Of a stretch of 1,110 nt of DNA, positions 1 to 1,110 are shown piece by piece (position 1 is the stretch's first letter; every line of letters starts with the position of its first letter). Source of the DNA: a phage; sequence record MN525561.1; one strand, 5' to 3'. The notes beneath the pieces are model-generated. The model saw nothing but the letters and a program-made list of their open reading frames with translations. It did not search any database and was not told the origin of the DNA. Made by a program: the position numbers and the translations under genes.

Positions 1-1110
1 ATGGCTCTTACTAATTCTGAGAAATCTCGTTTTTTTCTTGCTGATCTTACTGGTGAGGTTCAGTCTATTCCTAATACTTATGGTTATATTTCTGGTCTTG
101 GTCTTTTTCGTTCTGCTCCTATTACTCAGACTACTTTTCTTATGGATCTTACTGAGTCTGATATTTCTCTTCTTGATGCTGTTGATCGTACTTCTCGTAA
201 AGCTGAGACTTCTGCTCCTGAGCGTGTTAAACAGATTTCTTTTCCTATGATGTATTTTAAAGAGGTTGAGTCTATTACTCCTGATGAGATTCAGGGTGTT
301 CGTCAGCCTGGTACTGCTAATGAGCTTACTACTGAGGCTATTGTTCGTGCTCGTAAACTTATGAAAATTCGTACTAAATTTGATATTACTCGTGAGTTTC
401 TTTTTATGCAGGCTCTTAAAGGTAAAGTTATTGATGCTAATGGTGTTCTTTATGCTGATCTTTTTAAACAGTTTGATGTTGAGAAAAAAACTGTTTATTT
501 TGATCTTGATAATCCTAATGCTGATATTGATGCTGCTATTGAGGAGCTTCGTATGCATATGGAGGATGAGGCTAAAGTTGGTACTGTTATTAATGGTGAG
601 GAGATTCATATTGTTGTTGATCGTCTTTTTTTTTCTAAACTTATTAAACATCCTAAAATTCGTGATGCTTATCTTGCTCAGCAGACTCCTCTTGCTTGGC
701 AGCAGATTACTGGTTCTCTTCGTACTGGTGGTACTGATGGTGTTCAGGCTCATATGAATACTTTTTATTATGGTGGTGTTAAATTTGTTCAGTATAATGG
801 TAAATTTCAGGATAAACGTGGTAAAACTCATGTTCTTGTTTCTATTGATGGTGTTGCTAATACTGTTGGTGTTGGTCATGCTTTTCCTAATGTTTCTATG
901 CTTGGTGAGGCTAATAATATTTTTGAGGTTGCTTATGGTCCTTGCCCTAAAATGGGTTATGCTAATACTCTTGGTCAGGAGCTTTATGTTTTTGAGTATG
1001 AGAAAGATCGTGATGAGGGTATTGATTTTGAGGCTCATTCTTATATGCTTCCTTATTGCACTCGTCCTCAGCTTCTTGTTGATGTTCGTTCTGATGCTGC
1101 TCCTCAGGAT
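1..1110 (+). CDS. Phage major capsid protein, lambda gpE-like family (HK97 fold); 3'-partial CDS with no stop codon in the window; synthetic or back-translated single-codon encoding
   Basis: Frame +1 is open for all 370 codons from the ATG at 1-3 to the window end, and the translation has balanced, globular-protein-like composition. From memory of lambda gpE, it shares local motifs in the same order: MQALKGK (nt 406-426) vs lambda MQAVSAVLKGK, IHIVVDRLFF (nt 604-633) vs lambda NIIVFDPKGWALF, YGPC (nt 934-945) vs lambda YGC, and C-terminal RPQLLVDV (nt 1063-1086) vs lambda APLMLLADPDEF. The family assignment rests on recalled sequence, not a database search. Start codon assumed at position 1; the true 3' end lies beyond the window. 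Confidence 0.8.
   Translation, partial: MALTNSEKSRFFLADLTGEVQSIPNTYGYISGLGLFRSAPITQTTFLMDLTESDISLLDAVDRTSRKAETSAPERVKQISFPMMYFKEVESITPDEIQGVRQPGTANELTTEAIVRARKLMKIRTKFDITREFLFMQALKGKVIDANGVLYADLFKQFDVEKKTVYFDLDNPNADIDAAIEELRMHMEDEAKVGTVINGEEIHIVVDRLFFSKLIKHPKIRDAYLAQQTPLAWQQITGSLRTGGTDGVQAHMNTFYYGGVKFVQYNGKFQDKRGKTHVLVSIDGVANTVGVGHAFPNVSMLGEANNIFEVAYGPCPKMGYANTLGQELYVFEYEKDRDEGIDFEAHSYMLPYCTRPQLLVDVRSDAAPQD
30..36 (+). repeat. T7 homopolymer, arising from codons CGT-TTT-TTT-CTT (Arg-Phe-Phe-Leu)
   Basis: Counted directly: positions 30-36 are all T, with C at 37. Confidence 0.9.
484..490 (+). repeat. A7 homopolymer, arising from codons GAG-AAA-AAA-ACT (Glu-Lys-Lys-Thr)
   Basis: Counted directly: positions 484-490 are all A (g-a-g-aaaaaaa-c). 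Confidence 0.9.
626..634 (+). repeat. T9 homopolymer, arising from codons CTT-TTT-TTT-TCT (Leu-Phe-Phe-Ser)
   Basis: Counted directly: positions 626-634 are all T, flanked by C at 625 and 635. It is a by-product of the single-codon recoding. Confidence 0.9.

Follow-up and report, generated by a model that had tools for sequence, protein, structure and literature searches.

Codon composition of the window

The stretch of DNA analysed here in its entirety (1110 nt, hereafter the window) poses the question of whether it belongs to a phage genome or results from the conversion of a protein sequence into DNA. Positions 1-1110 are read in frame +1 as 370 codons without an internal stop, and direct tabulation of all 370 yielded exactly 20 distinct codons, a single one for each amino acid. 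The counts were as follows.

GCT 28, TGC 2, GAT 26, GAG 25, TTT 21, GGT 26, CAT 7
ATT 22, AAA 22, CTT 29, ATG 12, AAT 14, CCT 15, CAG 17
CGT 18, TCT 17, ACT 26, GTT 27, TGG 1, TAT 15

Fourteen of these codons end in T (GCT, GAT, TTT, GGT, CAT, ATT, CTT, AAT, CCT, CGT, TCT, ACT, GTT and TAT); the others are GAG, CAG, AAA and TGC, together with ATG and TGG. The GC content of the window is 36.8% and its T content 41%. A first-pass annotation, made from the letters alone, had described the strict one-codon encoding and a set made up of 14 T-ending codons plus GAG, CAG, AAA and TGC. Both descriptions hold in the tabulation: the counts quoted are all right (for example, 29 CTT for Leu and 2 TGC for Cys), no amino acid with two codons was found in frame +1, and Wright's effective number of codons, expected to be 20, was computed to be 20, as it must be by construction. 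The main features of the window are listed below.

1..1110, plus strand: full coding sequence of 370 sense codons, very probably artificial, without stop codon or untranslated flank (codon table, translation, protein identity, Pfam and PHROG)
1..3, plus strand: ATG start, as in the natural gene; the window begins here, so it has no preceding ribosome-binding site
1108..1110, plus strand: final sense codon GAT (Asp370); the TAA stop of the phage genomes is absent after it
1..1110, minus strand: open antisense frame in register with the gene, 370 codons, no stops, 20 distinct codons; an artefact, not a gene

The absence of TAA is what would be expected if a protein string had been turned into DNA. 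The antisense frame is open because none of the reverse complements of the stop codons (TTA, CTA and TCA) occurs among the 20 codons used; it follows of necessity from the choice of codons, and its being a gene was ruled out. Frame +2 contains three stops only, and its translation is very rich in Leu, Phe and Val.

The encoded protein and its natural genes

A tblastn search of 50,697 phage records with the window protein matched 1039 of them, in line with the expectation that the protein would find homologues, and two of the matches reached 100% over 370 residues. Direct comparison likewise showed the window protein to be identical, at 370 of 370 residues, to the major capsid proteins of Escherichia phage mistaenkt (MN850587, mistaenkt_102, QHR67990.1, annotated as "putative major capsid protein") and Enterobacteria phage CHB7 (MK562504, CHB7_gp77, QBP33030.1, annotated as "major capsid protein"). 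Both phages are classified in the genus Suspvirus, subfamily Ounavirinae (FelixO1-like myoviruses); mistaenkt came from Danish wastewater and was isolated on E. coli MG1655 (PMC7552041). By tblastn, the proteins of other Suspvirus members, SUSP1, SUSP2 and EcSzw, are 99.5-99.7% identical to that of the window, and those of Felixounavirus phages about 94%.

At the DNA level, the window is only 80.3% identical to the natural gene of mistaenkt and 80.4% identical to that of CHB7, and every one of the differences is synonymous. Identity to the natural gene at codon positions 1, 2 and 3 amounts to 95%, 98% and 48%, respectively, the differences at positions 1 and 2 being due to the six-fold degenerate families of Leu, Arg and Ser. 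The same codon is found in the window and the natural genes at 176-177 of the 370 positions, and the longest run that the window has in common with the natural gene is 26 nt. The natural genes have the same start codon as the window and code for the same number of residues; they differ from it in the features below.

Length: window, 1110 nt; natural genes, 1113 nt
Stop codon: window, none; natural genes, TAA
Distinct codons: window, 20; natural genes, 50
GC content: window, 36.8%; natural genes, 45.6%

In addition, the natural gene is preceded by a GGAG-containing leader, TAACAATAAGACATTCTGGAGAATTTTATA, which is absent from the window.

The choice of codons in the window does not follow that of the natural gene. 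The codon chosen in the window is a minority codon of the natural gene in the case of eight amino acids; examples are TTT (1 of 21), GAG (5 of 25), AAA (5 of 22), CTT (7 of 29), TAT (3 of 15) and GAT (8 of 26). At Cys the natural gene has one TGC and one TGT, that is, a tie. Since minority codons are used for eight amino acids, the window does not simply bring the natural gene's preferences into a "purified" form.

Capsid protein family and natural gene context

The window protein gave one full-length Pfam match, to PF03864 (Phage_cap_E), covering residues 13-362 and positions 2-327 of the 329-position profile with a score of 254.4 bits (cut-off 22.9, E = 1.8e-75), and it matched PHROG 29 (phrog_29, major head protein) at 7.8e-73. 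These matches place it in the lambda gpE family, and close homology predicts an HK97 fold. Full-length homologues in the PDB are Bas63 gp8 (9NCF, E = 3.2e-235) and Sf14 gp34 (9C2D and 9C3A, E = 2.5e-232). The 9NCF structure is that of the capsid of Bas63, a Felixounavirus, a T=9 icosahedron with 535 copies of a major capsid protein (MCP) that has the elements of the canonical HK97 fold (N-arm, E-loop, P and A domains, spine helix); this shell is enclosed by 540 copies of a beta-tulip decoration protein (Dec), arranged as trimers at quasi-threefold axes, and its hexamers bear a Hoc-like protein (PMC12609058). The 9C2D and 9C3A structures are those of the virion and the empty virion of Sf14, a Mooglevirus, whose capsid is also T=9, with the HK97-fold MCP gp34 and decoration proteins in the form of beta-tulip Dec trimers (PMC11821841). 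In the printed alignment, the Bas63 protein is about 92% identical to the window protein. The Bas63 and Sf14 capsid proteins belong to other genera and differ from the Suspvirus protein by roughly 20-30 substitutions; it is for these homologues, not for the Suspvirus protein itself, that structures have been solved and assembly into capsids demonstrated by experiment. By analogy with Sf14 and Bas63, the Suspvirus protein would be expected to form a T=9 head stabilised by Dec.

The window itself has no context. In mistaenkt, the genes run from terminase and portal through two small ORFs to a 447-aa prohead protease (Pfam Peptidase_S49, 4e-38), followed by a 125-aa protein that matches the Dec chains of Sf14 and Bas63 at 1e-70 and then by the MCP, so that the natural capsid gene lies directly downstream of genes for an S49-type prohead protease and a decoration protein. 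The order S49 protease, decoration protein, MCP is that of the C-D-E arrangement of lambda. Lambda gpE is nonetheless a distant relative of the window protein, and the lambda capsid is T=7, as opposed to T=9 in the Ounavirinae homologues. Just upstream of this module, mistaenkt has a large cluster of more than 20 tRNA genes (L001, 7664-13864), among which lie genes for HNH homing endonucleases; FelixO1-like phages typically have such a cluster, and it has no bearing on the window.

Search for matching natural DNA

The first-pass annotation held that no near-identical natural DNA should exist, and none was found by blastn among the 50,697 phage records, where identity reached 80.5% at most. In its sensitive form, the search returned 302 capsid-gene records, none of them at 85%, and the top matches were Suspvirus genes; that is, the true source genus ranked first. 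Megablast against the same phages returned 30 records, with identities of at most 78.5%, all of them capsid genes of the Mooglevirus type, and missed Suspvirus altogether. The true source escapes megablast because the longest exact run in common with it, 26 nt, falls below the 28-nt word size. The Mooglevirus MCP of Citrobacter phage BSwM KMM4 is 93.9% identical to the window protein; the DNA identity of the Mooglevirus capsid genes is about 78%. Megablast gave no match to the window in 5,426 complete E. coli genomes or in 72,556 plasmids, and IMG/VR contained no exact match to the 45-mer formed by window positions 1-45.

Sensitive blastn finds the capsid family because the protein signal is retained at codon positions 1 and 2, although the ranking it gives is unreliable. 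The earlier statement that nucleotide-level signals are uninformative here thus needs to be divided: it applies to GC content, the third-position signal and codon adaptation, and it does not wholly extend to nucleotide BLAST, which recovered the family with the source genus at the top.

In the course of these comparisons, the annotated major capsid protein CDS of KMM4 (locus L003, 432-1397) was seen to begin well inside the region of homology to the window, which starts near 301. The start of this CDS was probably placed too far downstream, which would leave the annotation truncated at its N-terminal end.

Codon usage expected of real genes

The encoding of the window was compared with what chance and natural bias would produce. 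As mentioned above, the same protein is encoded in nature with 50 codons. A 41-kb region of mistaenkt has 14 genes of 250 codons or more, the size taken as comparable; each of them uses 50-57 distinct codons, and none of the real genes of that size that were examined falls below 50. In phiX174, genes A, F, G and H use 60, 52, 45 and 46, respectively. When the window protein was encoded in 2000 simulations under phiX174 codon usage, 50-61 distinct codons were obtained. By analytical calculation, the chance that every amino acid would be encoded by a single codon throughout is about 1e-57 with the codon usage of the natural gene and about 1e-92 with that of phiX174. Extreme natural codon bias was ruled out by these two probabilities together with the 50-57 codons of real genes. 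The inference in the first-pass annotation that the window is back-translated or synthetic, and not natural, is thus supported by the 100% match to a natural protein, the 50 codons of its natural gene, the exclusively synonymous differences and the probability of strict one-codon use, 1e-57 or less under the natural usages tried.

Origin of the codon table

The resemblance of the codon set to that of small ssDNA coliphages had been offered as a speculation. Codon usage was computed from the annotated genes of several phages and scored by the number of degenerate amino acids for which the window's codon is top or co-top, with the following results.

phiX174: 18 of 18 (17 clear, Cys tied, with or without gene A*)
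M13: 15 of 18
G4: 12 of 18
mistaenkt: 11 of 18 (55 genes, 11,961 codons)

The resemblance turned out to be exact for phiX174, with Cys tied. The match was also complete, Cys again being tied, when genes F, G and H of phiX174 were taken alone. A random one-codon table would agree at the 17 untied amino acids with a probability of 6e-9. Cys is encoded in phiX174 by 13 TGT and 13 TGC codons without A*, and by 15 and 15 with A*; owing to this tie, the TGC of the window points to a rule for breaking ties or to a table based on slightly different genes, and the Cys choice neither supports nor opposes the attribution to phiX174. The source phage's own table was ruled out by its score of 11 of 18. The same applies to the E. 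coli K-12 table, which agrees with the window set for 9 of the 18 degenerate amino acids; the earlier remark that the set is not the one E. coli favours in its highly expressed genes was also correct. The other T-rich ssDNA coliphages, M13 and G4, both fell below phiX174. From the comparison with these four phage genomes and the E. coli table, we infer that a "most frequent codon" look-up from phiX174 was applied, while some other organism may conceivably have the same top-codon set. A literature search for back-translation with a phiX174 table found no paper describing the practice.

How the window may have been made

Together, these results strongly suggest that the window is an artificial back-translation, made by computer, and not a piece of any genome (probability about 0.95); no feature of the sequence speaks against such an origin. 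The starting material would have been the 370-residue major capsid protein common to mistaenkt and CHB7. Each amino acid would have been replaced, through a fixed look-up table, by its single most frequent phiX174 codon, and neither a stop codon nor flanking sequence would ever have been added. Reverse-translation utilities supplied with a chosen codon-usage table give a deterministic output of most frequent codons. Such utilities use one fixed codon per amino acid, add no flanks and include a stop only if one is supplied; the window is alike in all these respects. Further traces of the encoding are the homopolymer runs listed below.

626-634, plus strand: T9 homopolymer, Leu-Phe-Phe-Ser encoded as CTT TTT TTT TCT
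30-36: T7 run, in adjacent Phe/Leu/Ser or Lys codons
484-490: A7 run, in adjacent Phe/Leu/Ser or Lys codons

These runs result from mechanical codon assignment; in the natural gene a single run, A6, is as long as six bases. The window also contains two internal NdeI sites, and it shows no sign of cloning or synthesis design, there being no stop, ribosome-binding site, tag or cloning flank.

A natural origin would require a gene from an unsampled Suspvirus relative, driven to its present form by extreme translational selection or by a T-rich mutational bias at third positions. Some of the codon choices would fit, as GCT, GGT, ACT, GTT, CGT, TCT and ATT are also the top codons in the natural capsid gene, and natural capsid genes of the Ounavirinae favour several of the window's T-ending codons. 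However, complete monomorphy is too improbable in a gene of this size, at the most favourable estimate given above, to be the outcome of such biases, and the eight minority codons, with TGC merely tied with TGT, go against the preferences of the natural gene. It is not credible that a lineage fixed hundreds of synonymous changes while its protein stayed identical to that of mistaenkt and CHB7, and the missing stop codon also counts against a natural gene. This origin can be regarded as already effectively refuted, its probability being negligible. Equally improbable is that the window came from a generative sequence model or is the gene of a protein designed de novo. The DNA statistics are indeed unnatural, as they would be in either case, but two GenBank phage proteins match the window protein residue for residue, an identity that rules out a designed or generated protein, and a deterministic choice of codons is not what generative DNA models emit.

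The alternative of a physically synthesised capsid gene, deliberately recoded on the principle of "one amino acid, one codon", deserves somewhat more attention, unlikely though it is. Recoding of this kind is a known strategy of gene design and might serve expression, codon-compression or phage-refactoring experiments; moreover, the protein is intact in the window, and the window sequence is absent from the natural collections searched (phages, E. coli genomes, plasmids and IMG/VR). Against it stand the use of the table of phiX174, and not of the phage's own or that of its host, E. coli, and the lack of any stop codon, ribosome-binding site, tag or cloning flank. Gene design oriented toward synthesis would normally avoid homopolymer runs; the T9, T7 and A7 runs and the internal NdeI sites are features that it removes. 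No paper on such a gene was found in the literature. A more specific version, in which a FelixO1-like capsid gene of 20 codons was really built with phiX174 codons to test how well the removal of all synonymous variation is tolerated, is a shade less likely still; had it been built, it is the experiment and not the sequence that would be novel, and the interest would be modest. Computer back-translation and physical recoding would give an identical sequence, and the hints available favour a purely digital origin for the window, with the conversion apparently performed in silico and not as physical DNA.

Significance

The window should be flagged as artificial, lest its base composition (GC content and T-richness), codon bias, k-mer profile or fully open antisense frame be read as biology. 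To an ORF finder, the antisense frame and frame +2 would look like overlapping ORFs, yet both are artefacts. The window also provides a concrete case of back-translated DNA being misassigned by nucleotide search: megablast alone would have led to the wrong genus, Mooglevirus, and either a protein-level search or sensitive blastn is needed to arrive at Suspvirus. As regards the capsid biology of Suspvirus, there is nothing new here. The window is an artefact of sequence construction that carries a known and unmodified protein, and not a biological discovery; the protein adds no new biology, having been deposited already and having relatives, at about 92-94% identity, whose capsid structures are available from cryo-EM.
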